Counted from the stretch's first letter, positions 34,363 to 48,024 are shown. The stretch: DNA of 64,000 nt from Pedosphaera sp. (GCA_031414955.1 JANOQV010000105.1:9090-73089), one strand, 5' to 3'. Notes: generated from the sequence alone by a model not told the origin. Program-made: numbers and translations.

Positions 34363-34591
34363 GAATTTTCAGACCGGCTCTCTGACTGAATTCAGACTTC
34401 TGCCCCCGATCCACTTCGATGTTCGCTGGGGTATAGAACTCAAACCTTGGCTTCACATGCTTGTTCCGCGTAACAGAAACTTCCCTTGTCCGACACATTT
34501 TCGTAACCTTTCACCGAACCCAAACATTCCAGAAGCCGTGCTCTGACTCTCAGCGCACTCTCTTTTGGAGCAGTGCAAAAACTCGAAAGCT

Positions 34592-36907
34592 ATGAAAACG
34601 TCCATGCATCCCTTGGGATGGAGCCGAACGCGGCCATCCTTTTCCCCTCGCAAAATCACCGCCACACTGCTCGCCGTATTGGCGCTCGGCGCGGCTTCCT
34701 TAACGGCCCGTGCGGCCAACATCCTGTGGGTCAGCGACGCGCCTCCAGGCACCGCGAACAACAGCGTGTTCTCCGGGCCAGGCACAAGTTTCACCGATCA
34801 GGGCTTTGTGAAACTGCTCCAGGACGCCGGGCACAACGTCAACCGCATGAACACCCCGGACAGCGGAGCGACCAACATCACGGTCGCGGAACTCGCGGCC
34901 ATGAACACCAATGACCTGATCATCGTGGGCCGCGCCGCGGGCAGCGCCGGGTGGCAAAACAACCAGGCCACGAACTGGAATCGCGATGTGACCCGGCCGG
35001 TCGTCATCATGAGTCCCTATCTGGTGCGCACCGACGGCAATCGCGTCGGCTGGTTTGGCGGCGGCAATGGCGTCCTGCCCGACTCCACCCCTGCGCCTTT
35101 GACTCCTGGCCTGTCCGGCCATCCGGTGATTGATTATATCTTCCAGGATGTCCCGACCAGCGGGACCAACACGACCGAGCTTTTCGAGGAACCGATGGAC
35201 CGCAACACCAGCCTGATTGCGAATCCTCCGGTCGCCGGGGCTTTGGTCATCGCCACGGCCACGTTCGCCCGCGAGGACAATCTGGCCATCATCACCAATG
35301 CCAACGTCATCGTCGGTTTCCCGGCCGGGACAGTGGTGCGAGGCGGTTTTGATGTCCTCCCGGCCTACCGGATGTTTTGGGGCGGCGGCACGCGCGAATC
35401 GGCCACGGCCCTCAACGTCATTCCGCTCTACACCGGCCGCGAGAATCTCACGCCCACGGGCGAAAGGGTTTTCCTGCGCTCGATCGAGATCGCCTTGAAC
35501 AGCGGCGTGGCCCCCACCACCAACGATGGCCCGGCGGGGATTTCCAGCCAACCGGCCAACGTCACGGTGCCGCAGGACACCGCGACCGCCTTCTCCGTGA
35601 CTGCGACCGGCGCGACTCCGCGGCTCGTTTTCTGGCAGCGCGGCGATGGCGTGGGCGGTTTCACGAACATTCCCAACACGGAGAGCGTGCTGACCAAATC
35701 CACGTTAAAGATTCCTGTAGCCGGGCTGACGGACAGTGGCGCGCAGTTTCAAGCCGTGGTTTCCAACTCCCTGATCATGGCGACCAGCGACGTGGTGACA
35801 CTGACGGTGACCGCCGACACGGATGCGCCCCTGGTGCTGGGCGCGGCCAGCCTGGACGGCCTGAACATCGTGGTCTGTTACAATGAACTGGTGCAGCCGG
35901 GCACCGCCGGCGACGCCGGCAATTACCAGATCAACGGCGGCCTGGGACCGGATGTGTCCCTAGCCACCATGCGCCCCGACGGACGCTCGGTGAATCTGCT
36001 CCTGCTTAGCCCCATGGGCAGCACGGCCACGGTGGACGTGCTGGCGCGGAGCGACAACAACGGCAACTTCTCCGCCGATCCGGTGACCCTGACGGCCACG
36101 AATTACGGGCTGACCGGCGTCGATGTCGGGGTGCTCAATCCCGTGGGCGCGAACGTGGCCTGCGACGCGAACAGCTTCAGCGTGACCGGCGGCGGTCTGG
36201 ACATGGCCAGCACGGCGGACTTCCTTCGCTTCGTGTACAAGAACATCACCGGTCCCTTCGACGCGCGGGTGCGGGTCGTCTCGTTCGTGGGCACCAACGA
36301 CCACTTCGAGACCACGGCCAAGGCGGCGCTCACCGCGCGTGAAACCACGGCCAACAACTCCACGGCGGTGAACATTTTTATCACGCCAGCCGCTCCGGGA
36401 GACAACAACATCGTCTCAAACTTCCGCGGCGCGATCGCCGCCGTTACGAACTCGCTGGGCGCGAGCGTCCCGCGCACGACCTCGAACACCTGGTTGCGCA
36501 TCCGCCGCGTGGGCAGCGCCTTCACCACCTACCACAGCACCAACGGCACGGACTGGGTGACCTACGGCACGGCCACGACGGTGTTCGGTCCCACCATGAG
36601 CGTCGGCGTCGGCGTGGTCTCGCACCGTAACGGCAAGGTCGTCACCGGCACTTTCAGCGATTTCACCATCGTACCGGTGCTGCTCCCGACCATGCTGACC
36701 AACTCGGTGCCGGGCGTCGGCACCTTCACCTCGTCCTTCCAGACGCAGAATGGATTCAGCTACACGGTGGAATACAAGGATGACCTGAACCTGGTCCCGT
36801 GGACTTGGCTGGAAACCATCCCCGGCGACGGCACGCTCAAGACCTTCACCGATCTCGGCCCGGCTTCGCTGACCGGCACGCGCGTGTATCGGGTCAACGC
36901 GCAATAA
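34592..36907 (+). CDS. Large secreted protein with Ig-like domain and beta-sandwich modules
   Basis: ATG at 34592 within ORF 34565..36907. Signal peptide ATLLAVLALGAASLTARA. Ig-like segment ISSQPANVTVPQDTATAFSVTATG..LTDSGAQFQAVVSN. Thr/Asn/Gly-rich beta modules. Confidence 0.7.
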   Translation: MKTSMHPLGWSRTRPSFSPRKITATLLAVLALGAASLTARAANILWVSDAPPGTANNSVFSGPGTSFTDQGFVKLLQDAGHNVNRMNTPDSGATNITVAELAAMNTNDLIIVGRAAGSAGWQNNQATNWNRDVTRPVVIMSPYLVRTDGNRVGWFGGGNGVLPDSTPAPLTPGLSGHPVIDYIFQDVPTSGTNTTELFEEPMDRNTSLIANPPVAGALVIATATFAREDNLAIITNANVIVGFPAGTVVRGGFDVLPAYRMFWGGGTRESATALNVIPLYTGRENLTPTGERVFLRSIEIALNSGVAPTTNDGPAGISSQPANVTVPQDTATAFSVTATGATPRLVFWQRGDGVGGFTNIPNTESVLTKSTLKIPVAGLTDSGAQFQAVVSNSLIMATSDVVTLTVTADTDAPLVLGAASLDGLNIVVCYNELVQPGTAGDAGNYQINGGLGPDVSLATMRPDGRSVNLLLLSPMGSTATVDVLARSDNNGNFSADPVTLTATNYGLTGVDVGVLNPVGANVACDANSFSVTGGGLDMASTADFLRFVYKNITGPFDARVRVVSFVGTNDHFETTAKAALTARETTANNSTAVNIFITPAAPGDNNIVSNFRGAIAAVTNSLGASVPRTTSNTWLRIRRVGSAFTTYHSTNGTDWVTYGTATTVFGPTMSVGVGVVSHRNGKVVTGTFSDFTIVPVLLPTMLTNSVPGVGTFTSSFQTQNGFSYTVEYKDDLNLVPWTWLETIPGDGTLKTFTDLGPASLTGTRVYRVNAQ

Positions 36908-37071: not shown

Positions 37072-37677
37072 GTGCCGGGCCAGCAAATTTTTCATCTTCG
37101 CCGCGTGTTCCTAACCGCGTTTCTCGGCGTCATTCTCCTGGCCTTTCCAAAACTTCAAGCCACCAGCGTGCGCGCTCCGGGCTTCCACGCGCTGGTGGAT
37201 CGCGCCGAACTTATCTTCACCGGCCAGATGCTCTCGCAGCACTGCGAGTGGCGCGTCCTCGAAGGGCGGCGCAGCATCGTCACGCTGGTGTCGTTCGGCG
37301 TGGAAAGGTGGCACAAGGGTGTGTCCCCGGCGGTGGTCACGTTGCAATTCCTCGGCGGCACGATGGGCGAGATCACTTTGAGTGTGTCGGAGATGCCAAG
37401 GTTCAAGACCGGCGAACGCACCGTGCTCTTCGTCGAAGGCAACGGGGTGACGGCCTGCCCGGTGATTGGGTTTTATCACGGACGCTTCTCGCTGAAGCGC
37501 GATGACTCAGGCCGCGAGATCGTGCTCAAGCACGATGGTGAACCGCTGACCGAAACCAGCGGCGCGGGCCAGGACAAGGCGGTGAAGCAAGCACCGTCCG
37601 CGCCCCGCCCGGCCCTGTCACACGACGAATTTTCCACCGTGGTCCGTGCCCGCGTCGCCGCCGCGCCTCGCCCTTGA
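37072..37677 (+). CDS. Secreted hypothetical protein
   Basis: 201 aa, GTG start, signal peptide LTAFLGVILLAFPKLQA. Its stop lies 2 nt before the ATG of the matrixin gene. No recognised domain. Confidence 0.55.
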   Translation: MPGQQIFHLRRVFLTAFLGVILLAFPKLQATSVRAPGFHALVDRAELIFTGQMLSQHCEWRVLEGRRSIVTLVSFGVERWHKGVSPAVVTLQFLGGTMGEITLSVSEMPRFKTGERTVLFVEGNGVTACPVIGFYHGRFSLKRDDSGREIVLKHDGEPLTETSGAGQDKAVKQAPSAPRPALSHDEFSTVVRARVAAAPRP

Positions 37678-37679
37678 CC

Positions 37680-38789
37680 ATGAAACAGCTTGCTGTCATC
37701 GCCTTGCTCTTCCTCGGGTGCTCCGCCCGCGTGGCGCACGGCTACGACTTCCTCGGCCTGCGCCCGCTCAAGTGGGAGCCGGGCAGCATCGCGATGGATT
37801 TGCAACTCAACGCCACCCAGCCGCCGGAACCTTTGCGCGATGGCCGCAGTTCGTGGAATTCCGTCGCGCAGTCGGCCCTCGGACTCTGGAACGCGCGCCT
37901 CTCCCAGGTGCGATTCACCACCTTCACGGACAACACGCACGGCCAAGGCAACCGCAAGAACGAGGTCTTTTTCAGCCCCACGATTTACGGGCACGCCTTC
38001 GGACGGGATGTGCTGGCCGTGACCACGGTCTGGCGCGTCGGCCGCGCGCGCGTCGAAGCGGACACCATTTTCAACACTGCCATCGACTGGAACTCCTACC
38101 GGGGCGAACTCGGCGTCAGCAGCATGGATCTGCGCCGCGTGGCCCTCCATGAGTTCGGTCACACGCTCGGGCTGGACCATCCCGATCAGGCCCGGCAGAT
38201 CCGCGTCGCGATCATGAACAGCACCATTTCCGATCTCGACACCCTGGCCACCGACGACATCCGCGGCGTGCGCGGCCTCTATCCGTCGTTTGACCGCTAC
38301 GTGCTCGACCTACAGGTGCTCTCGACCGGACGGGGCGTCATCCTGGCCGATCCCGCGCCCGGCCCGGACGGCAAATATCCCGCCGGCCAGATCGTCACGC
38401 TCACGGCCCGGCCGCGCCGGGGCAACCGCTTCAACTATTGGGACACGACCTCCGACCCCACCCGCCGGACCATCCGGGTGCAAGTGGTCGAGAACGAAAC
38501 CATTCGCGCCGACTTCTCCACCAATCGCGCCCCGCTCATCACGGTGCAGCCCCGGGGGAAACTCGCCTCCTACGCCGAGACGGTGAGCTTCCGCGTGGCC
38601 GCGTTGAACGCCACCGGCGCGAGCCACCAATGGCAGTATAATCATGTCGATCTTCGTAATGCCACGAATGCCTCGCTGGTGTTGTATCTCGTGACTCATG
38701 GCGACTCAGGACTCTACTCCTGCCGCGTCACCACGCCGCGCGGCTCCACGCAGAGCCGGTCCGCGCGGCTGGTTGTGGACGGCTATTGA
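37680..38789 (+). CDS. Matrixin-type (M10) zinc metalloprotease with C-terminal Ig-like domain
   Basis: HEFGHTLGLDH (38148..38180) is the HExxHxxGxxH zincin motif, followed by IMNS (a possible Met-turn). Signal peptide MKQLAVIALLFLGCSA. C-terminal Ig-like segment ..THGDSGLYSCRVTT..ARLVV. The track ORF begins at the TTG at 37674. Confidence 0.8.
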   Translation: MKQLAVIALLFLGCSARVAHGYDFLGLRPLKWEPGSIAMDLQLNATQPPEPLRDGRSSWNSVAQSALGLWNARLSQVRFTTFTDNTHGQGNRKNEVFFSPTIYGHAFGRDVLAVTTVWRVGRARVEADTIFNTAIDWNSYRGELGVSSMDLRRVALHEFGHTLGLDHPDQARQIRVAIMNSTISDLDTLATDDIRGVRGLYPSFDRYVLDLQVLSTGRGVILADPAPGPDGKYPAGQIVTLTARPRRGNRFNYWDTTSDPTRRTIRVQVVENETIRADFSTNRAPLITVQPRGKLASYAETVSFRVAALNATGASHQWQYNHVDLRNATNASLVLYLVTHGDSGLYSCRVTTPRGSTQSRSARLVVDGY

Positions 38790-39336
38790 CCGGCTGCGCG
38801 CCTGGTTGGGAGGCAGGGCTTTTCGCTCCTCCGCGCCGCCCGCTGTCTCCGCCGCTTCCCGTCTCGTGAAACGCTGCGCCGATGGCAGCGTGGTGGAATT
38901 TGGTCGCGGACGCTTCGATGACTGGTGCGTTTACGTGCGCCGGCCCGGAGGCGAACGCCGCGCGCCGCGCGACGTCGATTACTTCTCGGAGTTGAAGCAG
39001 TTGCACGCGCAACACCCCGGGCTGCACGACGACTTCATCACCGTGTTCATGGCGACCGGGAAGGCAATCGATCCCGTCGTCAGCGAACGCATTTCCGAAC
39101 TGGCCGGATCGTATCCCGCCCCCCTGCGCACCGACCTCGAGGTGCTGCTGGCCACGCTATACGCCGCCATGATCGCCGAGGAAAACCGCGCCCACGCCCC
39201 GCTCGGCAAACGCATCAAGCGACTCGGCGTGCATCAGGTGCTGGTGGAAGGAATGCCGGTGGAGGAGGCCGCGAACTTCAGCCGGGGCAAACCGTGGCGG
39301 GAATTGGAGCAGATCTGCGTAGCGCGCGGGTTTTAG
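38698..39336 (+). CDS. Hypothetical protein (start uncertain)
   Basis: The maximal ORF overlaps the matrixin gene by 92 nt. In-frame alternatives are TTG 38806 and GTG 38866 (MKRCADGSVVEFGRGRFDDWCVYV). No recognised domain. Confidence 0.5.
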   Translation: MATQDSTPAASPRRAAPRRAGPRGWLWTAIDRLRAWLGGRAFRSSAPPAVSAASRLVKRCADGSVVEFGRGRFDDWCVYVRRPGGERRAPRDVDYFSELKQLHAQHPGLHDDFITVFMATGKAIDPVVSERISELAGSYPAPLRTDLEVLLATLYAAMIAEENRAHAPLGKRIKRLGVHQVLVEGMPVEEAANFSRGKPWRELEQICVARGF

Positions 39337-39512: not shown

Positions 39513-39911
39513 CTACTCCAGCGGCAGCCCGAAGTAGAGCCGCAGCCACGGCTCCAGTTCCTCGAACTCGACCGCCTTGCCCGTGGAGACGAGGAACGAG
39601 CGCATGTTGTCCGAGAAACCCGTGCCGGCGAAGACCACCAGGCCGGGGATGGGCCAGGCCTCGATGTCCTTGATCGTGGCCGGGATTTTTTCCTCCGCGC
39701 TGCCGACCACGGATTGGAATTTGCATTCGAGTCCGAGTGTCTTGCGTGACCCGGGATGAATGAGCACCACGTCGATGTGGCGCACCGCGCCCCAGATGCG
39801 GCGGGCCACCCGGACCTGCTCGCGCGCTTCCAGTCCAAGTTCCTGGCCGAGCGCCACCACGGCCTTGGCCAGCCCGTCTCCATTCTGAACTGCAAGCGCG
39901 CGTCCGGCCAT
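39513..39911 (-). CDS. Minimal PD-(D/E)XK-fold nuclease (candidate restriction component)
   Basis: 132 aa. HIDVVLIHPGSRKTLGLECKFQ fits the D...(D/E)xK core, preceded by a GDGLAKAVV..L helix as in Hjc/YraN-like nucleases. Starts 1 nt after the stop of the upstream gene. Confidence 0.5.
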   Translation of the reverse strand: MAGRALAVQNGDGLAKAVVALGQELGLEAREQVRVARRIWGAVRHIDVVLIHPGSRKTLGLECKFQSVVGSAEEKIPATIKDIEAWPIPGLVVFAGTGFSDNMRSFLVSTGKAVEFEELEPWLRLYFGLPLE

Positions 39912-39912
39912 G

Positions 39913-40719
39913 TCAGTCTTCCGCTCTGAAAATATGAAGCTGGTGCCTCATCCCACTTTCGAGCAACCAAATCTCATCCTCTCCGTTAACAACTTCGAGG
40001 ATCGTCTCAACAAATAATTTCTCAAAGAACCAGCGAATCTGTGCTGCCCTGCATTCCGCTTCGTTCATGTCTTTTCCGCTCCCACACGGAAAAATAAACC
40101 TTACAACTGCCGTGGTTTCATCAACCAGGTACCGATTAACGCCAACAGCTTCCGCTTCCACAATTTCCCTTCTGCTCTTGAGGTTTCCAACCTTGAAACG
40201 ACCGCTGACGTGACTAATGGAATACCCGCCGAAAACGTCGGAGATCCACTTGCATAGTCGTTCGAGGAATTCGTCATTGGTTTCGTCTTTCCGAGGAAAC
40301 TGAGCTTCGAGCTTGTCGAATCCGATAGCTTTTAGCCGGGGAACAACTGCGTCTTTGAAGAACAAAGAATCGAGAGCCGACTTAAGCCATTCCTCATTTC
40401 GTAATGGCATGAAGAATTCAAATAGCAGGACATGGTTGTAGCAAATGGCCTGGTATTTGCGCCGGAAGCGGCGCTTCTGCGTGGCAATCTCGTCTCGAAA
40501 TTTCGGCCAAGTGAATTGCCGGAACGCTAGAATTACCCGAAACGTGTTCCCCGGGCGTGGCTCAAGAAGTGACCTGAATTGTTTTGACAGATAAGTGTCG
40601 AAAGAACTCCGACTGAACCCCGTCGCGGCACGAAACTCATCCAGCGTAAACGGCTCCTGAGTGATGCAGCGTTGGTGCAAAAAATCGAACGCTTTGTGAT
40701 GGTCAGATCCGAGTGTCAT
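39913..40719 (-). CDS. Hypothetical 268-aa protein (possible N-terminal winged-helix), middle gene of the methyltransferase operon
   Basis: Clean ORF, visibly more AT-rich than the flanks. ATGA overlap with the methyltransferase stop. N-terminal FTLDEFRAATGFSRSSFDTYLSKQF looks HTH-like. No catalytic motif recognised. Confidence 0.6.
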   Translation of the reverse strand: MTLGSDHHKAFDFLHQRCITQEPFTLDEFRAATGFSRSSFDTYLSKQFRSLLEPRPGNTFRVILAFRQFTWPKFRDEIATQKRRFRRKYQAICYNHVLLFEFFMPLRNEEWLKSALDSLFFKDAVVPRLKAIGFDKLEAQFPRKDETNDEFLERLCKWISDVFGGYSISHVSGRFKVGNLKSRREIVEAEAVGVNRYLVDETTAVVRFIFPCGSGKDMNEAECRAAQIRWFFEKLFVETILEVVNGEDEIWLLESGMRHQLHIFRAED

Positions 40720-41717
40720 ATCGCCTTTTTGCCTTCACCTGTCAGCTCAGGGTGGAGTATTGAGGCCTCCTTCATGCGTTTGATGGCAACCCGAACGTGA
40801 TTTTCATCCAACTCGATACCGATGAAGTCACGGTCCAATTGAACACAAGCGACACCAGACGTTCCCGCGCCCATGAACGGGTCCAGCACAATCGCCCCCT
40901 TGTTTGTAGAGGCTTTGAGGCACAACTCGATAAGCGCGATGGGTTTTTGAGTGGGGTGCTTTCCAAAAACCTTTTCGCGCTTCGGCGGAGCGGCAATTTT
41001 CCAGACTGATTTCATCTGCTTTCCCGCGTTCAGCCGCTTCATGTCCTGGTAGTTGAAAAGATGCTTACTCTTCTCGTTCTTTGCCGCCCAGAGAATCGTC
41101 TCGGTCGAGTGCGTGAAGTAACGGCAGGAGAGGTTCGGCGGCGGGTTGGGTTTTTCCCACGCGATGTCGTTCAGGATTTTCATCCCGAGCTGCTGCATGG
41201 CGTAGCCGACGGAGAAAATGACGTGCTGCGTGCCGGTGACCCAGATCGTGCCGTTGGGCTTGAGCACGCGCTGGCAGCGGCGCAGCCACTCGGTGTTGAA
41301 CTCGTGGTTCAGCTCCGGCCCCTTCGACTTGTCCCAGTCGCCCTTGTCCACCTTGACCATCTTGCCGGCGTGGCAGGTGATGCCGCCGTTGGAGAGGAAG
41401 TAGGGCGGATCGGCGAAGATGCAGTCGAAGCAGCCGTCGGGAAATTTCTCGTGCATGGCGTCGAGCACTTCCAGTGAATTGCCCTGCACCAGCGCGGCCC
41501 CGCCGATCTCGGCGCGCAGATGCGTTCGCACCACCTCGAGAATTTGGGGCCAGCCGGGAAACTGGGCCGGGGTCTTGCCGCGTTTGAGCACGCGCGACGA
41601 TACAGTCGCCGCGCGCGGCGGGTGCAAGAGAAATGAGCGCAGGCGCGCGACCCCAGGCTCATCGGGAGACATATTTTGCCTGGGTTTGAACTTCCTCAGA
41701 ATTTTTCTTCTCGCCAC
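40716..41717 (-). CDS. Beta-class N6-adenine/N4-cytosine DNA methyltransferase
   Basis: Motif IV IFADPPYF precedes HPTQKP and motif I VLDPFMGAGTSGVA, which is the beta-class order. GTG start at 41717, or ATG at 41672. Confidence 0.85.
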   Translation of the reverse strand: MARRKILRKFKPRQNMSPDEPGVARLRSFLLHPPRAATVSSRVLKRGKTPAQFPGWPQILEVVRTHLRAEIGGAALVQGNSLEVLDAMHEKFPDGCFDCIFADPPYFLSNGGITCHAGKMVKVDKGDWDKSKGPELNHEFNTEWLRRCQRVLKPNGTIWVTGTQHVIFSVGYAMQQLGMKILNDIAWEKPNPPPNLSCRYFTHSTETILWAAKNEKSKHLFNYQDMKRLNAGKQMKSVWKIAAPPKREKVFGKHPTQKPIALIELCLKASTNKGAIVLDPFMGAGTSGVACVQLDRDFIGIELDENHVRVAIKRMKEASILHPELTGEGKKAI

Positions 41718-41783: not shown

Positions 41784-43442
41784 ATGAAGAAAGTTTGGCC
41801 AATTCTATGTCTGGTGTGCGGCGCGCTGCTGTTGGGCGGCGCACTGCTCGTGCCGGTGCATTGGCGCGCGGTGGATGCCTCGGCGGTCGAACGCGCAGGC
41901 CGGGGAGGCGCCGGCGCGGCCACCCCCACTTTGATTGAGGAAGGTCTGACTTTCCTGAGCGTGGAAAAACTCGGCCCGGCTCGGATGCTCTTGCGCACCG
42001 CTCAATCGGAGGGTGTGCCGCGCGCCGAGGTGCTGGCGGCGGCGGTCGCCCAGTTTGCCAAGGACAATCCCGCTCAGGTGGCACTGGGCGGCGAGGAACC
42101 GGTTTTGAGCAAGGTGGATCTGGCTCTGGGCGCGCTGACCGAGCCGCGTCCGATCGTGGAGTTGCTGGCCCGCCGCACGGCGCGCGAGAAGGCGCTGCAA
42201 TCCTTGCAGCAATCGCGCCGGCCCGCCGTGTTGCAGATTCTCAAGAACCGTAATCTCACCCGGACGGTTCACTTTCCTGCGGCGACGTCCTCCTCCGGTC
42301 AGGCCCTGGAAGCAGCCATCATTACCGCCGGCCTCTTGTTTCAAGGCGACTATTTCACGGCATCGTTCCGCGAGGCGCTGGAGTGGCTGGCGGTGAGCGC
42401 GAATCGCGGCGAGAACTCCGGCGCACTCGAACTGGTCTATCTCGATCTGCTCTCCGTGGGCAAACGCCTCGACTGGGTGTCCATGACGGAACTGGTCAAA
42501 CATGTGGACAGCATCGCCACCTTGCGCGACCTCGCCGAAGCGGTGCGCTCCCACGAGGACGCCATGCCGAACATCTTCGCGGCCGTCGCCCTGTCGGGCA
42601 ACGGCCGGGGCGTGGCCAAGTATCTCGACACCTTTTCCGAGACCGGGATGAATGACGTCAACTTCGCCCTGCGCCACGGGCGCGGCGCGGTGGATTTGCT
42701 CATCAAGCAGCAGCAGCGCATTTATTCCGCCGGCCAGTTTCGCAGCCAGGTCGTCAAGTATGATCCGTTTGGTGCGTTCTTCCACGGCCTGATGCCAGCC
42801 GCCATTGGCTCCCATGTCGGCGCCTTGTTTCTAAAGTATGCCCTGCTGCTCTTTGCCGCTTTGTTCATCGCCCGCACCATCGGGTTCATCGTTCCGCCGG
42901 TCGGCCATCGCTTCGGCGTGCGGTTCGGTGCCGACCTGGTGCTGGCCGCAGCCATCGCCTTCATCGTCGCGCTCTCGGTCGAGCCGTTCGTCGGGCTGCC
43001 CGCCCAAATCACGGAACTTCCTTTTCGCATCCAATTCCCCGGCTTCGGGGACGCCGCCGCCACCAATCCGCAAACCATCCATCAACCATTTATGAAACAA
43101 CTCAGCCTTGTCTCACTGTCGGTGTTCTTCGTCATCCAGGCGCTGATCTACGTCTGGTGTCTCGCCAAGATCGCGCAGATCCGCCGCGAGCCAAACAGCG
43201 CCCGCGTGAAGCTGCGCCTCCTGGAGAACGAAGACCACCTCTTCGACGCCGGCCTCTACATCGGCTTCGCCGGCACGGTCATCTCGCTCATCCTCGTGGC
43301 GCTGAACATTCTCGGCAAAGGCAGCACGATGATGGCGTATTCCTCGACCTCGTTCGGCATCATCTTCGTCTCGGTGCTGAAGATTTTTCATCTCCGCCCG
43401 CTGCGCCGGAAGCTGATCCTCGAAAGTGAAGAGCAGCCATGA
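41784..43442 (+). CDS. Membrane protein with C-terminal MotA/TolQ/ExbB-like channel segment
   Basis: 552 aa. N-terminal TM, roughly 320-aa helical domain, then TM helices. The last two read LYIGFAGTVISLI and AYSSTSFGIIFVSV..LRPLRRK, resembling the G(L/F)xGTV and A..(T/S)T..G(L/I) signatures of TolQ/ExbB TM2-TM3. By-eye match only. Confidence 0.5.
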   Translation: MKKVWPILCLVCGALLLGGALLVPVHWRAVDASAVERAGRGGAGAATPTLIEEGLTFLSVEKLGPARMLLRTAQSEGVPRAEVLAAAVAQFAKDNPAQVALGGEEPVLSKVDLALGALTEPRPIVELLARRTAREKALQSLQQSRRPAVLQILKNRNLTRTVHFPAATSSSGQALEAAIITAGLLFQGDYFTASFREALEWLAVSANRGENSGALELVYLDLLSVGKRLDWVSMTELVKHVDSIATLRDLAEAVRSHEDAMPNIFAAVALSGNGRGVAKYLDTFSETGMNDVNFALRHGRGAVDLLIKQQQRIYSAGQFRSQVVKYDPFGAFFHGLMPAAIGSHVGALFLKYALLLFAALFIARTIGFIVPPVGHRFGVRFGADLVLAAAIAFIVALSVEPFVGLPAQITELPFRIQFPGFGDAAATNPQTIHQPFMKQLSLVSLSVFFVIQALIYVWCLAKIAQIRREPNSARVKLRLLENEDHLFDAGLYIGFAGTVISLILVALNILGKGSTMMAYSSTSFGIIFVSVLKIFHLRPLRRKLILESEEQP

Positions 43443-44866
43443 ACCGCTCGATCCTCATCGTCATCTGCGACTTCCTGCTCGTCACGCTGGTGGCGTTCTC
43501 GAACTTCGACACCGACAAGCTGGAGCAGCCCGAGACCCGCATCGCCCAGGCGCCCAAGGGCATCGGCGGCAACCAGGACATGATGGGCACGCTCCAACTC
43601 GCCCTCGAGGACGAGAAGCAGACGCGCGAGAAGTTGACCTCTGATTTGCGCGCGCAGGAGCAGGCGGCCACCGAGCGCGAGCAGAAGATCAAGGAGTTCC
43701 AGGAAAGCCTCCGGCGCACCGAGGAGCAGGCCAAGCAAATCGAAACGCAACGGTCCGCGCTCGCCCAGCAGGCGGCCGCCGCCCAGTCGAGTTTGCAGGA
43801 TGTGCAGGGCAAGCTCTCCACGGTCAGCGCGCAGAATCTTGTCTCCCAGGAAAAGCTCGCTTCACTCCAGGCGGATCTGAAGAAACGTGAAGAGGAAGCC
43901 AAGGTGCTCCAGGCGAAACTCTCCGAGACCGAGCGCGCCGCGCAGGCCACGCTGGCGGAGAAGCAGCAGATCTCGGCGCAGCTTCAAGTGTCCGAAGCCG
44001 AAAAGCGCCTGACCCGCGAGCAAGTCGCCGAACTGCGCGGCACCGTCGCCACCGAGCGCCAGGAAAAGGCGAAGCTTCAGGAGCATGCCTCGTCCCTGGC
44101 CACGAATCTCTCCACCCTGGCCCAGCAATCGGGTGAACTGACCAAGGAGATTCGCGACACCCGGCCGCTCTCGCCGAATGCCATCTTCAACGGCTTCCTC
44201 AGCAACCGTATCACGGCCAGGTTCGATGCGGCCCGCAGCGGCCTCTTCGGTCGCGACGTGGCCAAGGAGAAGAGCAGCCAATGCCTGCTGTTCACCGAGG
44301 GCACGCAGACCTTCGCCCTGTTCCATGTGGACAGCACGCCGCTGACGATTTGGAATCCAGGCACGGACTGGAGCAGCCTCACCACAGTCCTGCAGCACGG
44401 AAAAGTCGCATTTTCTGGCGTGAGATTGTCGTTCCTCGCCCAAGATCCACGCGTGGTAGTGGTGCCCATCGGCACCGCGCAGGCCAAACAATATGGCGTG
44501 AAGATTTACAATGCCGGCATCGATCCGTTCAAATTCCAGGAGGCCGTCATCGTGGGAGCCAACGAAGGCTATTACGGCGAGTGCAAGTTCCAAATCGACA
44601 CCAGCACGCCCAACTACGTGAAGGTCGATCGCAGCCTGCTCAAGGGCTTGTTCGGACAGTTCAACCCCTCGCGCGGCGACTTCGTCCTGACCAAGACCGG
44701 CGACCTCATCGGCGTCATGGTCAACGGGGAGTATTGCGCCCTGCTGAACAAGGTCATGCCCACGCGCACTATCACCCTCGGCAACGATGTCTCCACCCAG
44801 CAGACCGGCCAGATGCTTTCGCAGCTCTACGATCGCATCTTCCAGATGCCGCTGAAGCTGCAGTAA
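43439..44866 (+). CDS. ExbD/TolR-like single-TM protein extended by a long coiled coil and a C-terminal globular domain
   Basis: ATGA overlap with the upstream gene. N-terminal MNRSILIVICDFLLVTLVAF has an intramembrane Asp in an I.D.LLV.L..F context, like the TolR/ExbD TM. About 200 aa are Q/A/E/K-rich heptad-like sequence. The C-terminal domain carries SRGDFVLTKTGDLIGVMVNG, reminiscent of a Ser-less trypsin-fold motif. Confidence 0.45.
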   Translation: MNRSILIVICDFLLVTLVAFSNFDTDKLEQPETRIAQAPKGIGGNQDMMGTLQLALEDEKQTREKLTSDLRAQEQAATEREQKIKEFQESLRRTEEQAKQIETQRSALAQQAAAAQSSLQDVQGKLSTVSAQNLVSQEKLASLQADLKKREEEAKVLQAKLSETERAAQATLAEKQQISAQLQVSEAEKRLTREQVAELRGTVATERQEKAKLQEHASSLATNLSTLAQQSGELTKEIRDTRPLSPNAIFNGFLSNRITARFDAARSGLFGRDVAKEKSSQCLLFTEGTQTFALFHVDSTPLTIWNPGTDWSSLTTVLQHGKVAFSGVRLSFLAQDPRVVVVPIGTAQAKQYGVKIYNAGIDPFKFQEAVIVGANEGYYGECKFQIDTSTPNYVKVDRSLLKGLFGQFNPSRGDFVLTKTGDLIGVMVNGEYCALLNKVMPTRTITLGNDVSTQQTGQMLSQLYDRIFQMPLKLQ

Positions 44867-44872
44867 CGGCCG

Positions 44873-45526
44873 GTGAAAACCAACGCCTCGGGAATCCTGC
44901 TGCTGGGTTTGGGGTTTCTTATCGTCGGCTGCGCTTCGTTCGCGAAGCGCCTGGAAGCGGTCACGGTTTCAAAAATCCAGCCTGGGTCCACGACGCGCCC
45001 AGAAGTGGAGCAACGTCTCGGTGTACCCAGCGAAACCGTCCGGGGAACCAATGGCACCAGGGTGGTGAGATATTTCTTTCATGAGTTTGAACGCTCAATG
45101 GATGTGAGCCACCACCGTCGGCGCTTCGAGCCGGGCCTCGTCCTTTTCCGCACGCTCACGCTGAGTTACAGCCCCGAGGAGGTTGTCACGCGCCGGCTAT
45201 ACGATGAAAGCCTCACGCCAATTTACCGGACCAACGCCTGGTTCTCAGCTGGGCCGGTGCTGACGTCCGCATCGACTGCCTTTTGCCAGCGCGGCGTCAC
45301 GACGCACTCTGAGGCCGTGGACCGGCTCGGCAGGCCCAGTTCGCACACTTTTGATCAGACTGAAGGTTCAGTGCTCGTCTGGTTCAGCCTCAAGACCCGC
45401 CAATCGAACTGGAGCGATCCAGACATCGGGAAACTAATCATGAGGTTCGACGAGCGTGGAGTGCTTGGAGACTTCACCCTGGTCGAACACGTCCGGATCA
45501 ACCTTGATCCATTGGCTCTCCCCTGA
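44873..45526 (+). CDS. Lipoprotein with two BamE/SmpA-OmlA-like repeats
   Basis: GTG start. Lipobox GFLIVGC. Repeats KIQPGSTTRPEVEQRLGVPSE and CQRGVTTHSEAVDRLGRPSS resemble the BamE G.T..EV...LG.P pattern. Confidence 0.5.
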   Translation: MKTNASGILLLGLGFLIVGCASFAKRLEAVTVSKIQPGSTTRPEVEQRLGVPSETVRGTNGTRVVRYFFHEFERSMDVSHHRRRFEPGLVLFRTLTLSYSPEEVVTRRLYDESLTPIYRTNAWFSAGPVLTSASTAFCQRGVTTHSEAVDRLGRPSSHTFDQTEGSVLVWFSLKTRQSNWSDPDIGKLIMRFDERGVLGDFTLVEHVRINLDPLALP

Positions 45527-45640: not shown

Positions 45641-46027
45641 ATGCGTTTCCTGCGCCAGTATCGATTCATTGTCGCGTTCTTTCTGCTGCTGATCTTTTGC
45701 ACCGTGATGTGGGTCCGGCAGATGAATATTCGCCAGTCCAAGCATGTCGAAATGCGCGAGGCTTTCATCCTGCTCTTCATGCGCAACTACACCCTGGAGG
45801 CGCGGCATCTCTTCGACAAGCTGGTCATCGAGGTGCCTAAGTACACCGGGAAGCTTTCCGACAAGGAAGTGCTGGATGACTTCCAGCGCACCCTGCTGCT
45901 GGTGGATCCTTACTCCAACCAGACCAACAACCTGATTTGGAAGTACCATTGGATGCTGAGTGAGGAACTGGACAAACGCTCCGTGGATCTGCTGGAGCGT
46001 GCCCACCAACTGGCCGAAAAGGAATAA
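45641..46027 (+). CDS. Small single-TM hypothetical protein
   Basis: 128 aa. TM FIVAFFLLLIFCTVMW followed by a helical soluble part. No recognised domain. Confidence 0.5.
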   Translation: MRFLRQYRFIVAFFLLLIFCTVMWVRQMNIRQSKHVEMREAFILLFMRNYTLEARHLFDKLVIEVPKYTGKLSDKEVLDDFQRTLLLVDPYSNQTNNLIWKYHWMLSEELDKRSVDLLERAHQLAEKE

Positions 46028-46109: not shown

Positions 46110-46865
46110 ATGTTGCTGCGAATCAGTTTAATTTTGGCGATCCTGGCCGGTCTCGGCACGATCGCGGTCATCCACACCAAGACCCGCGAGCACATCAACG
46201 GCATCCGGACCGTGCGGGACGAAAACATTCAAGGCCGCGCGAAGGAAAAGGGCCGCGCGGAAAAAGCCGAGAAGGAACTGGCCTCCACCAAGGACACTCT
46301 CACTCAGACCAAAGACACCCTGGCCAAGACCGAGGAGGAATTGAACGGAGCCAAGCAGCGTCTCGTCGTCGCGGAGGAAAGCATCGGCAAACTGAAGGGT
46401 GAGTTGGCCGGTGCCGTAGAGAGCCGGAAGAAGGCCGAGGCTGACTTGGCCAAGTGGAGCTCGCTGGGGCTTACCCCCGAGCAGGTGGTGGAACTAGGCA
46501 AAAAGGAAAAAGCGCAAAAGGATGCCATCGCCGCGTTGGAGGACGAGAAGTTGATTTTGGCGCGCAATGCCAAGGAACTCCAAAACAGGCTCGACATTCT
46601 CCTGGGGGGCGATGAATTCGTCGTCAAACTCCCGGCCAACACCAAAGGCAACATTATGGCGGTTGATCCCAAGTGGAATTTCGTCGTGGTCGATCTCGGC
46701 AAGAACAAGGAAATGCTCGAAGGCGGCGTCCTCATGGTGCATCGCAACAGCCAACTCGTCGGCAAGGTCCGCATCCGCGAAGTGCAGGCCGACCGCTGCG
46801 TGGCCACGGTGATGCCCGGCTGGCAATTGGGCGAAATCGAAGAAGGCGATCAGGTCATTTACTGA
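46110..46865 (+). CDS. TM-anchored coiled-coil protein with C-terminal beta-barrel-like domain (TolA/TonB-like architecture)
   Basis: 251 aa. TM ISLILAILAGLGTIAVIH with a His, K/E/A-rich coiled coil, and C-terminal GNIMAVDPKWNFVVVDLG...GGVLMVHR..QLVGKVRI.EV....VATV......IEEGDQV. Confidence 0.55.
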   Translation: MLLRISLILAILAGLGTIAVIHTKTREHINGIRTVRDENIQGRAKEKGRAEKAEKELASTKDTLTQTKDTLAKTEEELNGAKQRLVVAEESIGKLKGELAGAVESRKKAEADLAKWSSLGLTPEQVVELGKKEKAQKDAIAALEDEKLILARNAKELQNRLDILLGGDEFVVKLPANTKGNIMAVDPKWNFVVVDLGKNKEMLEGGVLMVHRNSQLVGKVRIREVQADRCVATVMPGWQLGEIEEGDQVIY

Positions 46866-47025: not shown

Positions 47026-47115
47026 ACCTCGGCAGTTTTTCCCGTTCTCCTTCGATTCATTTCGGCGGCATGACTTCAATTGACAGCCCGCGCACCCTTT
47101 CCGCACTCTAGTTCC

Positions 47116-48024
47116 ATGTCGAAACCCGCTCTTGGCCGTGGACTCGGCGCGCTGCTCGGGAATACGCCCGTGGCACCCGCCATGCCGGCCAATCCCCCCC
47201 CTGCCCCGGTCGATGACCGAGATCGTGTCTTGCGCGTCAAGCTCGACCGCATCAAGCCCAGCCCGCTCCAACCCCGCAAAGATTTCACTCCGGAGGCGTT
47301 GCAGGAACTGGCCGCCTCGATCAAGGAGCAAGGCATTGTGCAACCACTCATCGTGCGCGATCAAAAGACGCACTACGAACTCATCGCCGGCGAACGCCGC
47401 TGGCGCGCGGCGCAGTTGCTCATGCTGGCCGACGTGCCGGTCATCGTGCGCCAGGCCGACGATCGTTCGGTCCTCGAACTGGCGTTGATTGAAAATCTGC
47501 AGCGCGAGAATCTGAACCCGATGGAGGAGGCGCTCGGTTACTCGCAACTCATCGGGCAATTCCAACTGCGCCAGGAAGATGTCGCGACCAAAGTGGGCAA
47601 GAGCCGCGTGGCCGTGGCCAACGCCCTGCGCCTGCTCAAGCTTGCCCCCGAGGTTCAGATTTACGTGCGCGATGGCCGCCTCTCCGTCGGACACGCCAAA
47701 GTGATCTTGTCCCTGGCGCTGGGCGAGCAGCAGAAGCTCGCCGCCGAGCGCGTGCTCAAGAACGGTCTGACCGTGCGCCAGGTTGAGGAACTGGTCTCGC
47801 ACTTGCAGAACCAGCCCGCAGCGACGTCCGGCACCCCGATGCCGGCCGGACTTCCAGCCATTCGTGACCTGCACGTCGTCGCGGTGGAGAACAAGATTCG
47901 CGAGCGCTTCGGCACCAAGGTCCAGTTGCGCTACCGCCAGGGTAAAGGCTCCATCGAAGTGAAGTTCTACAGCGAAGCCGACCTGGATCGAATCCTCAAC
48001 GTCATTGGAGTTAAACCCGACTGA
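47116..48024 (+). CDS. parB: Chromosome partitioning protein ParB/Spo0J
   Basis: ATG at 47116 within ORF 47080..48024. MSKPALGRGLGALL, PRKDF..E.L.ELA.SI...G..QP..VR, ELIAGERRWRAA and ENLQRE.L.P.EEA motifs. Confidence 0.9.
   Translation: MSKPALGRGLGALLGNTPVAPAMPANPPPAPVDDRDRVLRVKLDRIKPSPLQPRKDFTPEALQELAASIKEQGIVQPLIVRDQKTHYELIAGERRWRAAQLLMLADVPVIVRQADDRSVLELALIENLQRENLNPMEEALGYSQLIGQFQLRQEDVATKVGKSRVAVANALRLLKLAPEVQIYVRDGRLSVGHAKVILSLALGEQQKLAAERVLKNGLTVRQVEELVSHLQNQPAATSGTPMPAGLPAIRDLHVVAVENKIRERFGTKVQLRYRQGKGSIEVKFYSEADLDRILNVIGVKPD

Follow-up and report, generated by a model that had tools for sequence, protein, structure and literature searches.

Proteins of the MotA/TolQ/ExbB type and their partners of the MotB/TolR/ExbD type form ion-driven motors of 5:2 stoichiometry. 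Here we describe two overlapping genes, denoted A and B, in a 64,000-nucleotide (nt) stretch of DNA from Pedosphaera sp. (GCA_031414955.1 JANOQV010000105.1:9090-73089; the whole stretch is hereafter called the window), which in our judgment probably, although by no means assuredly, encode an ion-driven 5:2 motor in which B, as a single chain, would take on the roles of both TolR and TolA (or GldM). Structures of 5:2 complexes have been solved (reviewed in PMC9389320). The closest functional analogues of the A/B pair are the TolQ-TolR-TolA and ExbB-ExbD-TonB systems and the GldL-GldM complex. The closest published concept is that of the TPH-vWA partners encoded with TolQ-like genes, in which a TolR-like transpore helix (TPH) carrying an Asp residue is predicted to be fused to a long periplasmic effector, with no separate tolR or exbD gene (PMC12204202, Mol Biol Evol 2025); these force transducers of Proteobacteria and Verrucomicrobia are known by prediction only (PMC12204202). 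Large periplasmic appendages at the N-terminus of ExbB homologues (DUF2341, DUF3450) have been discussed as well (PMC12505986). The appendaged ExbB homologues and the TPH-vWA partners are precedents for the architecture of the A/B pair.

The two genes and their predicted products are the following.
41784..43442, + strand: gene A, 552 amino acids (aa); inner-membrane protein with six transmembrane (TM) helices, candidate MotA/ExbB/TolQ-type (pentamer-forming) subunit
43439..44866, + strand: gene B, 475 aa; bitopic membrane protein, candidate ExbD/TolR/MotB-type (dimeric axle) subunit

An earlier note on this DNA, made from the sequence, had placed two open reading frames (ORFs) here and quoted peptides from them; both ORFs and the quoted peptide strings are present in the window. 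The overlap between the genes that it had pointed out is likewise seen in the DNA, where the start codon ATG of B and the stop codon TGA of A share ATGA at 43439..43442 (...cagccATGAac). A scan for promoters and terminators yielded nothing exceeding the shuffle expectation.

The pair belongs to a widespread family. A word-indexed protein search returned 338 clusters of homologues of A and 1647 of B, and an exhaustive HMMER search with a profile of A detected 806 clusters (50% identity) at E<=1e-3, of which 346 reached E<=1e-30; all 150 matches listed from the latter search are full-length members of the family. In a one-genome-per-species collection, relatives are encoded in 172 stretches, 80 of which were retrieved. 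With the exception of a few evidently mis-binned labels, the 80 retrieved relatives come from metagenome-assembled genomes of Verrucomicrobiota (Pedosphaera, Limisphaerales, subdivision 3). A homologue of B is located immediately downstream of A, on the same strand, in 80 of the 81 loci, as had been anticipated for Verrucomicrobiota; the 4-nt overlap is retained in 69 of the 75 measurable cases, and B in the relatives always starts with ATG, followed by a conserved N-terminus (MNR(S/T)). When all flanking ORFs within 4 kb on each side were clustered, no third gene was found in more than 12 of the 80 loci. Thus, A and B form a strict, translationally coupled two-gene module embedded in variable surroundings that consist mostly of housekeeping genes. 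The module is uncharacterized, as the earlier note had surmised: the names of the homologues of A and B are either absent ('hypothetical') or automatic, and the automatic ones are explained by a coiled coil. In particular, the automatic names assigned by the Joint Genome Institute (JGI) to homologues of B (AcrA, CheA, 'membrane protein involved in colicin uptake', myosin) are apparently coiled-coil artefacts. Many homologues of B also carry a precomputed Pfam tag, PF24161, which was not reproduced by hmmscan of the B protein from the window at E<=1.

The N-terminal membrane helix of B is located as follows.
43439..43501, + strand: TM helix of B (MNRSILIVICDFLLVTLVAFS), candidate proton-carrying transpore helix
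43469..43471, + strand: codon (GAC) of D11, within the TM helix of B

The Asp residue of this helix, originally numbered D12, is D11; its context resembles that in ExbD and TolR, and it is invariant, being present in 188 of the 188 B sequences, so that the expectation of a conserved TM Asp was borne out. No other part of B is as well conserved as this TM helix, in which the top-residue frequency averages 0.90 and 12 of the 21 columns are conserved at >=97% among the 188 sequences. Given the synteny and the retained overlap, together with the invariance of D11 and the fact that the membrane helix is the best-conserved part of B, the pair and its conservation are more than chance. The same conservation bears on an alternative, which we consider unlikely although it deserves serious attention, in which no motor is formed: B would be a membrane-anchored HtrA-like (pseudo)protease on a coiled-coil stalk and A its polytopic partner (a scaffold, sensor, regulator or substrate-delivery component), with the buried Asp and A's polar residues doing no more than hold TM helices together and the resemblance to ExbB and ExbD being convergent or fortuitous. 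Plain anchor or dimerization helices, however, seldom surpass the rest of a protein in conservation, as this helix does.

The A protein consists of a large helical domain inserted after the first of six TM helices and a highly conserved C-terminal core.
41793..41849, + strand: TM1 of A (residues 4-22), predicted N-in signal-anchor after MKK; helix in the structural model; conservation 0.50
41856..42803, + strand: all-helical domain of A (residues 25-340, 316 aa), predicted to be periplasmic; model confidence ~90; conservation 0.54
42813..42980, + strand: TM2-TM3 hairpin of A (residues 344-399), the extra outer helices 344-369 and 377-399; conservation ~0.50
43086..43439, + strand: core of A, TM4-loop-TM5-TM6 (residues 435-552), candidate ExbB/TolQ-like TM1-loop-TM2-TM3 unit, as judged by hhalign and conservation
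43275..43277, + strand: codon of T498, in TM5 of A
43347..43349, + strand: codon of T522, in TM6 of A

In the AlphaFold2 (AF2) model of A, with a mean predicted local distance difference test score (pLDDT) of 79, the six TM helices span residues 4-22, 344-369, 377-399, 435-468, 489-506 and 512-550; the topology proposed originally, with one N-terminal and two C-terminal TM helices, had to be revised accordingly. By contrast, the proposed ~320-aa helical domain was recovered at residues 25-340 with pLDDT ~90. This domain has no recognizable fold relative, the top Foldseek match in the PDB having an E-value of 1.2. The loop 400-434 is poorly predicted, and residues 473-487, between TM4 and TM5, form a short amphipathic segment in the model. 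The numbers of Lys and Arg residues are 2, 1, 5 and 4 in the inside loops of A, whereas the two short loops outside have 1 each. These positive-inside counts favor an N-in, C-in orientation, which suggests that both termini and the loops 370-376 and 466-488 are cytoplasmic and that the large helical domain is located in the periplasm. With the helices of the AF2 model, the predicted orientation of TM4-loop-TM5-TM6 is that of TM1-cytoplasmic domain-TM2-TM3 of ExbB and TolQ.

Sequence conservation in A peaks in this core, reaching 0.87 in TM6, 0.80 in the cytoplasmic loop and 0.77 in TM5, compared to ~0.50 in TM1-3. The cytoplasmic loop consists of 23 aa (NEDHLFDAG), TM5 carries the motif GFAGTV and TM6 carries YSSTSFG. 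The invariant or nearly invariant residues among the 229 A sequences are Q452, N482, E483, D488, A489, G490, Y492, G494, G497, T/S498, Y519, S521, T522, G525, K533 and R538. In particular, position 498 is occupied by Thr or Ser in all 229 sequences (Thr in 159, Ser in 70), and T522 and G525 are retained in 224 and 228 of the 229, respectively.

For profile-profile comparison, reference alignments were constructed from 13 ExbB/TolQ genes of plasmid and chromid records, to which E. coli ExbB was added (n=14), and from 12 ExbD/TolR genes of such records. Comparison of the 229 A sequences with the 14 ExbB/TolQ sequences using hhalign produced, as the single best local match, the alignment of LYIGFAGTV of A with PYIGLFGTV, the T145 motif of TolQ (P 9e-4 to 1.1e-3, probability 20-23%); the result is the same with the C-terminal 123 or with all 552 residues. 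TolQ T145 (ExbB T148) provides the pore-lining hydroxyl of the penultimate TM helix, within the motif G-x-x-G-T-[VI], which GFAGTV of A, aligned with GLFGTV of TolQ, fits. A permissive extension of the alignment, of low confidence, through the short periplasmic loop places T522-S-F-G525 on T178-A-I-G181 of TolQ; T178 (ExbB T181) is the second pore-lining Thr, located in the last TM helix within T-x-x-G. Hydroxyl residues of A are thus found at both the T145 and the T178 positions of TolQ, the latter only in the low-confidence extension. Of 300 column shuffles of the reference core, which gave a mean score of 11.8 +/- 2.5, one reached the observed 24.8; reversal of the reference gave 15.2. In an unfiltered search of 2882 ORFs from the window and the related loci with a hidden Markov model (HMM) of the ExbB/TolQ core, members of the A family occupied ranks 1-4 and 27 of the top 40, which, A sequences being mutually related, counts as one observation. 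On the B side, the best local hhalign match of full-length B to the 12 ExbD/TolR sequences aligns ICDFLLVTLVAF with LLDVLLVLLLIF, placing D11 on D23 of TolR. Comparison with single sequences of E. coli TolQ, ExbB and MotA (the TolQ sequence agreed with the database at 99.6%) found the right motif without reaching significance, and for MotA found nothing.

Several observations weigh against homology with these families and favor the explanation without a motor. Neither PF01618 nor PF02472 matches A or B at E<=1, so that the profile matches expected from the original proposal were not obtained; PF01618 is not matched by 33 homologues of A at E<=10 either, these sequences giving only spurious TM matches (UL41A, pilin). 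For A, there is no match in Pfam (E<=1), NCBIfam or PADLOC, including the ZorA and ZorB models of the latter; for B, these libraries yield only noise of the coiled-coil type. A search of all PDB sequences with the A profile using hmmsearch (E<=10) finds no MotA, ExbB, TolQ, GldL or ZorA, and Foldseek with the whole model of A returns nothing below E 1 (best 1.2). In B, Pfam detects neither PF02472 nor an OmpA domain, the predicted periplasmic part consisting instead of a coiled coil and a trypsin fold. The HH probability for A is only ~20%; the scores of the ExbB/TolQ core HMM on the A-family ORFs are only ~6 bits; the match of B to ExbD/TolR spans 12 columns, and its score is reached by 7 of 300 shuffles (empirical P ~0.02); similarity between TM segments is, in general, prone to composition artefacts. 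Furthermore, the conserved Pro residues of TM2 and TM3 of TolQ/ExbB (SPYIG, AAIPAV) are absent from A, which has DAGLYIG and FGIIFVSV and no Pro until P539, and the cytoplasmic domain of A comprises ~23 residues versus ~100 in ExbB.

Each of the homology statistics taken alone is marginal and pertains to compositionally biased segments. Because the standard searches are negative, the case for homology consists of these profile-profile statistics (P ~1e-3 for A and ~2e-2 for B) combined with context. That context comprises the topology of A, which fits ExbB; the single, N-terminal, Asp-bearing TM helix of B, encoded immediately downstream of A as in ExbD, TolR and MotB; the order and coupling of the genes, which match exbBD/tolQR of the reference loci; and the constraint on the TM segments. 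An alternative without a motor would have to regard as coincidental that the best match of A, and likewise that of B, falls on the functionally critical motif of the partner family to be expected, with the genes in the order to be expected. Because both proteins do so, and in view of the gene order, coupling, topology and TM constraint, we favor, with reservations, homology of the core of A with ExbB and of the helix of B with ExbD and, hence, a motor-type mechanism. The interpretation offered in the earlier note accordingly holds for the gene pair, the invariant Asp, the hydroxyl residues, the coil and the head, but not for homology detectable by curated profiles and structure searches.

The C-terminal head of B is the only domain of the pair with a firmly identified fold, a fact that fits the explanation in which B is an anchored (pseudo)protease.
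44165..44863, + strand: head of B (residues 243-475), predicted two-barrel trypsin/HtrA fold followed by a C-terminal helix; pLDDT ~85-95
44324..44326, + strand: codon of H296, head of B
44444..44446, + strand: codon of D336, DPR motif, head of B
44669..44671, + strand: codon of S411, NPSRGD motif, head of B
44672..44674, + strand: codon of R412, NPSRGD motif, head of B

A ~230-aa domain of trypsin fold had been suggested at this position, and comparison of the modeled head with the PDB using Foldseek supports the trypsin/HtrA fold: the best matches are the protease domains of plant Deg2 and Deg9 and of human HTRA1 (PDB 8SE7), with E-values of 4e-6 to 1.6e-4, probability 1.0 and 10-12% identity over ~205 columns, followed by sobemovirus serine proteases. 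At the sequence level, no S1-protease match was found for the head either in Pfam (13 head sequences, E<=10) or by hmmsearch of PDB sequences with a head profile. The protein ends after the protease-like domain and has no PDZ domain. For hhalign, we used a set of 13 HtrA sequences, 11 of them taken from plasmid records (the HTRA1 sequence of the set matched HtrA-family genes at 31-46% identity); the head is collinear with this set over 144-191 columns (P 0.02). In this register, H296 falls on the catalytic His, the variable S326 on the catalytic Asp and R412 on the catalytic Ser; S411 is one residue upstream of R412, beside a 7-residue gap, so that the Ser register is uncertain by one residue. 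D336 belongs to the loop that joins the final two strands of barrel 1 and precedes the strand VVVVPI, which matches LPVLLLG of HtrA. An intact H296/D336/S411 triad, which we considered, was dropped after the comparison with the 13 HtrA sequences and inspection of the strand order in the model. H296 is retained in 187, S411 in 181 (otherwise Thr, Asn or His) and R412 in 171 of the 188 sequences. Because the His is kept while the canonical Asp and Ser positions appear to be substituted, the head is probably a pseudo-protease, that is, a binding module rather than an enzyme, which renders a plain protease role for B doubtful. The original description of the head as 'Ser-less' is therefore probably right in substance, although the replacement that it had placed at F415 is assigned to R412 by hhalign. 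Two Cys residues of the head, C382 and C433, co-occur in 174 of the 188 sequences; a disulfide bond between them would suit a periplasmic location.

The head and the membrane helix of B are connected by a linker and a long coiled coil.
43502..43573, + strand: linker of B (residues 22-45, 24 aa), variable, pLDDT <50 at residues 20-46; conservation 0.33, the lowest in B
43574..44161, + strand: coiled-coil stalk of B (residues 46-241), AF2 helices 46-131 and 137-241; profile matches of the coiled-coil type only

In the AF2 model of B (mean pLDDT 79), the TM helix (4-20) is followed by the linker (21-45), which is probably disordered, two long helices (46-131 and 137-241) that agree with the coiled coil recognized previously, a beta-rich region (258-446) and a final helix (456-468). 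Among 188 homologues, the length of the coil has a mode of 196 aa and its length variants are mainly multiples of seven; the two halves differ in length independently, the first ranging from 63 to 157 aa and the second from 82 to 123 aa. The pattern resembles a ruler under selection for heptad register. A point that weighs against a motor with a periplasm-spanning shaft is that the coil may fold back on itself, as it possibly does in the AF2 monomer, which would bring the head near the inner membrane; Foldseek matches of the B model include the helical hairpins of YscO, SMC arms and EnvC. We regard such an intramolecular hairpin as less likely: because heptad-multiple insertions and deletions occur independently in both halves, an extended coil is preferred over a fixed hairpin. 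The coil would then be an extended, in-register, dimeric coiled coil in the periplasm, with a stalk length of ~29 nm (196 residues x 0.148 nm). Other Foldseek matches of B are periplasmic regulators with coiled coils, EnvC of FtsEX-EnvC and EmrA among them, which fits the explanation without a motor.

The profile matches of the stalk to SMC/Rad50-type coiled coils, together with a parB-like gene 2 kb downstream in the window, might be taken to indicate the inverted topology, in which the coil and head of B and the helical domain of A are cytoplasmic and B is a membrane-tethered protein associated with the cytoskeleton or the chromosome. The N-terminal tail of B comprises only three residues, which makes a charge-based prediction from B alone weak. 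Nevertheless, we deem this arrangement very improbable: the positive-inside counts of A strongly favor N-in, C-in, with the large domain outside; the TM helix of B has R3 before it and acidic residues after it; the two conserved Cys residues of the head suggest a disulfide bond; parB is unlinked to the pair in other genomes; and the SMC matches represent generic coiled-coil similarity.

Under the motor interpretation, A and B would assemble in the inner membrane into an ion-driven complex akin to MotAB, ExbBD and TolQR, with the 5:2 stoichiometry assumed by analogy. The ring would be built by TM4-TM6 of five A subunits around two B helices, with rings of hydroxyl groups, T/S498 of TM5 and T522 of TM6, facing D11 of the central B helices. 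Proton flow via D11 would cause the ring and the axle to turn relative to each other, and the movement or tension would be carried outward by the linker, the dimeric coil of ~196 residues and the head of B. The head, at the tip of the stalk, is proposed to serve for binding close to the peptidoglycan or the outer membrane, and the five periplasmic helical domains of A might form a collar round the base of the stalk. Of this picture, the anatomy, conservation and synteny of the pair and the trypsin fold of the head are shown, whereas the relationship of the TM core with ExbB/ExbD, the stoichiometry, the coupling to ions, the extension of the stalk in the periplasm and the target of the head are inferred. 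The more specific proposal, that A and B represent a motor family confined to Verrucomicrobiota, in which the axle helix, a ~29-nm heptad-ruled shaft and a pseudo-protease head are joined in one polypeptide that spans the periplasm and the ring subunit has acquired a new helical collar, is in our estimation evenly poised between right and wrong.

The predicted complex shares with TolQ-TolR-TolA and ExbB-ExbD-TonB the order of the genes and their translational coupling, the predicted ExbB/TolQ topology of the last three TM helices of A, the motif G-x-x-G-T-V at the position of TolQ T145 (with T-x-x-G at that of T178 in the low-confidence extension only) and, in B, an Asp within D-[VF]-[LM]-L-V; the long helical element of B, predicted to span the periplasm, resembles domain II of TolA. 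Unlike their counterparts in these systems, A and B show no match to PF01618 or PF02472, A lacks the prolines of TolQ/ExbB TM2 and TM3, its cytoplasmic domain comprises no more than ~23 residues, and it has three extra TM helices and the 316-aa helical domain; B lacks the periplasmic domain of ExbD/TolR, and MotB, for its part, has an OmpA-like peptidoglycan-binding domain. Moreover, the stalk is fused to the pore helix of B, whereas TolA and TonB are separate proteins at the periphery of the ring, and the head has a trypsin fold instead of the C-terminal domain of TolA or TonB. GldL-GldM and PorL-PorM, which were compared by description, resemble the pair in that the GldM dimer has one motor TM helix per subunit and a long part that crosses the periplasm to outer-membrane-associated partners. 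They differ in that the periplasmic part of GldM consists of four globular domains, GldL has two TM helices and a cytoplasmic domain, the charged residues are placed differently, and these proteins come from Bacteroidota; GldL, GldM, PorL and PorM are not among the Foldseek PDB matches listed for the A and B models.

As in the TPH-vWA partners, an Asp-bearing transpore helix is joined directly to a periplasmic effector. Those partners, however, have a vWA domain as their head and usually form heterologous pairs, and their A subunit can be recognized as a TolQ homologue, whereas here we find a heptad coiled coil, a trypsin-fold head, a single B gene and an A subunit unseen by profiles. The appendaged ExbB/TolQ homologues with DUF2341 or DUF3450 are like A in having large domains N-terminal to the TM core and an exbD-like gene next to them; among the reference loci, ExbB-type proteins with a big N-terminal extension followed by exbD are represented by a 604-aa protein of Methylomagnum (locus L092, 175..1989, annotated as DUF2341) and a 625-aa protein of Ralstonia (locus L090, 109..1986). 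They are, however, readily detected as MotA/TolQ/ExbB and are followed by normal ExbD and TonB; the appendage of A, in contrast, is all-helical, has no known fold relative and is accompanied by an extra TM hairpin. With the HtrA/Deg (S1C) proteases, the head of B shares the two-barrel chymotrypsin fold, the C-terminal helix, a His that aligns with the catalytic one and the collinear strand motifs G-x-x-V-x-A-x-G-x-(D)PF and G-(D/E)-L-(I/L)-G. It differs from them in the absence of a sequence-profile match and of PDZ, the variable Asp position, the alignment of R412 with the Ser position, with the neighboring S411 96% conserved, and the location of the domain on a membrane-anchored coiled coil. 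We found in the literature no combination of a profile-invisible A subunit, with its TM hairpin and helical collar, and a coiled-coil, trypsin-headed B, and nothing closer than PMC12204202 and PMC12505986; the claim that the fusion architecture was unrecognized thus stands for the combination of A and B, but the concept has a precedent in the TPH-vWA partners (PMC12204202).

If the motor interpretation is correct, a large family (the 806 clusters and 172 stretches mentioned above), which no profile library annotates, would join the few 5:2 ion-driven machines, namely, the flagellar stators and the Ton, Tol, Gld/Por, Agl and Zorya systems. Proton-motive energy would then cross the periplasm by means of a rigid coiled-coil shaft fused to the axle helix, so that a long-standing question, whether the B dimer itself rotates and whether rotation or tension can be transmitted along a shaft, would become more directly testable; the length of the shaft shifts naturally in heptad steps and could be engineered. 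This architecture would be of interest to specialists in 5:2 ion-driven motors. In Verrucomicrobiota, where genetic models are few, the family would direct attention to an envelope function hitherto unstudied, and the head would exemplify the recruitment of a trypsin fold for what is likely a binding role.

Directly upstream of A in the window, on the opposite strand, is a probable restriction-modification cassette (39513..41717, - strand) that coincides with a dip in GC content (0.557 versus ~0.62).
40716..41717, - strand: type II N6/N4 DNA methyltransferase (PF01555, E 7e-58)
39913..40719, - strand: ORF without assignment, 268 aa, member of the restriction-modification cassette
39513..39911, - strand: PD-(D/E)XK nuclease (PF20472)

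The cassette is probably a horizontally acquired insertion. In the other loci, where the neighbors are housekeeping genes, restriction-modification genes are not adjacent to A/B, and a functional link between the pair and the cassette, the synteny not being seen elsewhere, was rejected. The methyltransferase and nuclease in the low-GC patch, along with a weak PADLOC match of B to the tail region of ZorA1 (E 0.018), could be construed as signs of a Zorya-like anti-phage module, in which a sensor-motor of the MotAB type in the membrane is equipped with a long coiled coil. The ZorA1 match, however, covers only the coiled coil of B and is found amid many SMC/JetC-type coil matches, A has no PADLOC match, so that neither a ZorA nor a ZorB profile is matched by the pair, and there is no ZorC/ZorD/ZorE-like effector gene or other conserved third gene beside it. 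In addition, the long tail in Zorya is cytoplasmic and belongs to the A subunit, the restriction-modification genes are confined to the window, and the 172 stretches, from one genome per species and labelled or plausibly Verrucomicrobiota, are unlike patchy defense islands. A defense function of this kind is accordingly hardly credible, and we retain the envelope motor as the preferred interpretation of the module.

Downstream of B, three ORFs follow on the same strand.
44873..45526, + strand: lipoprotein-like ORF, 217 aa, with a lipobox-like LIVGC, beginning 7 nt past the stop codon of B
45641..46027, + strand: one-TM ORF, 128 aa, the second after B
46110..46865, + strand: ORF of 251 aa, the third after B; TM helix, coiled coil and C-terminal domain

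Because these ORFs are not found beside A/B in the 80 related loci, they are probably outside the module. The parB-like gene mentioned above (47080..48024, + strand), assigned by its sequence, lies 2 kb downstream of the pair and is unlinked to it in other genomes. On the other side of the restriction-modification cassette, an ORF at 38698..39336 (+ strand) strongly matches DUF7004 (PF22539, E 8e-54). Further upstream, a 371-aa secreted-looking protein encoded at 37674..38789 (+ strand) contains the zinc-metalloprotease motif HEFGHTLGLDH, and the 780-aa ORF that precedes it (34565..36907) also looks secreted.

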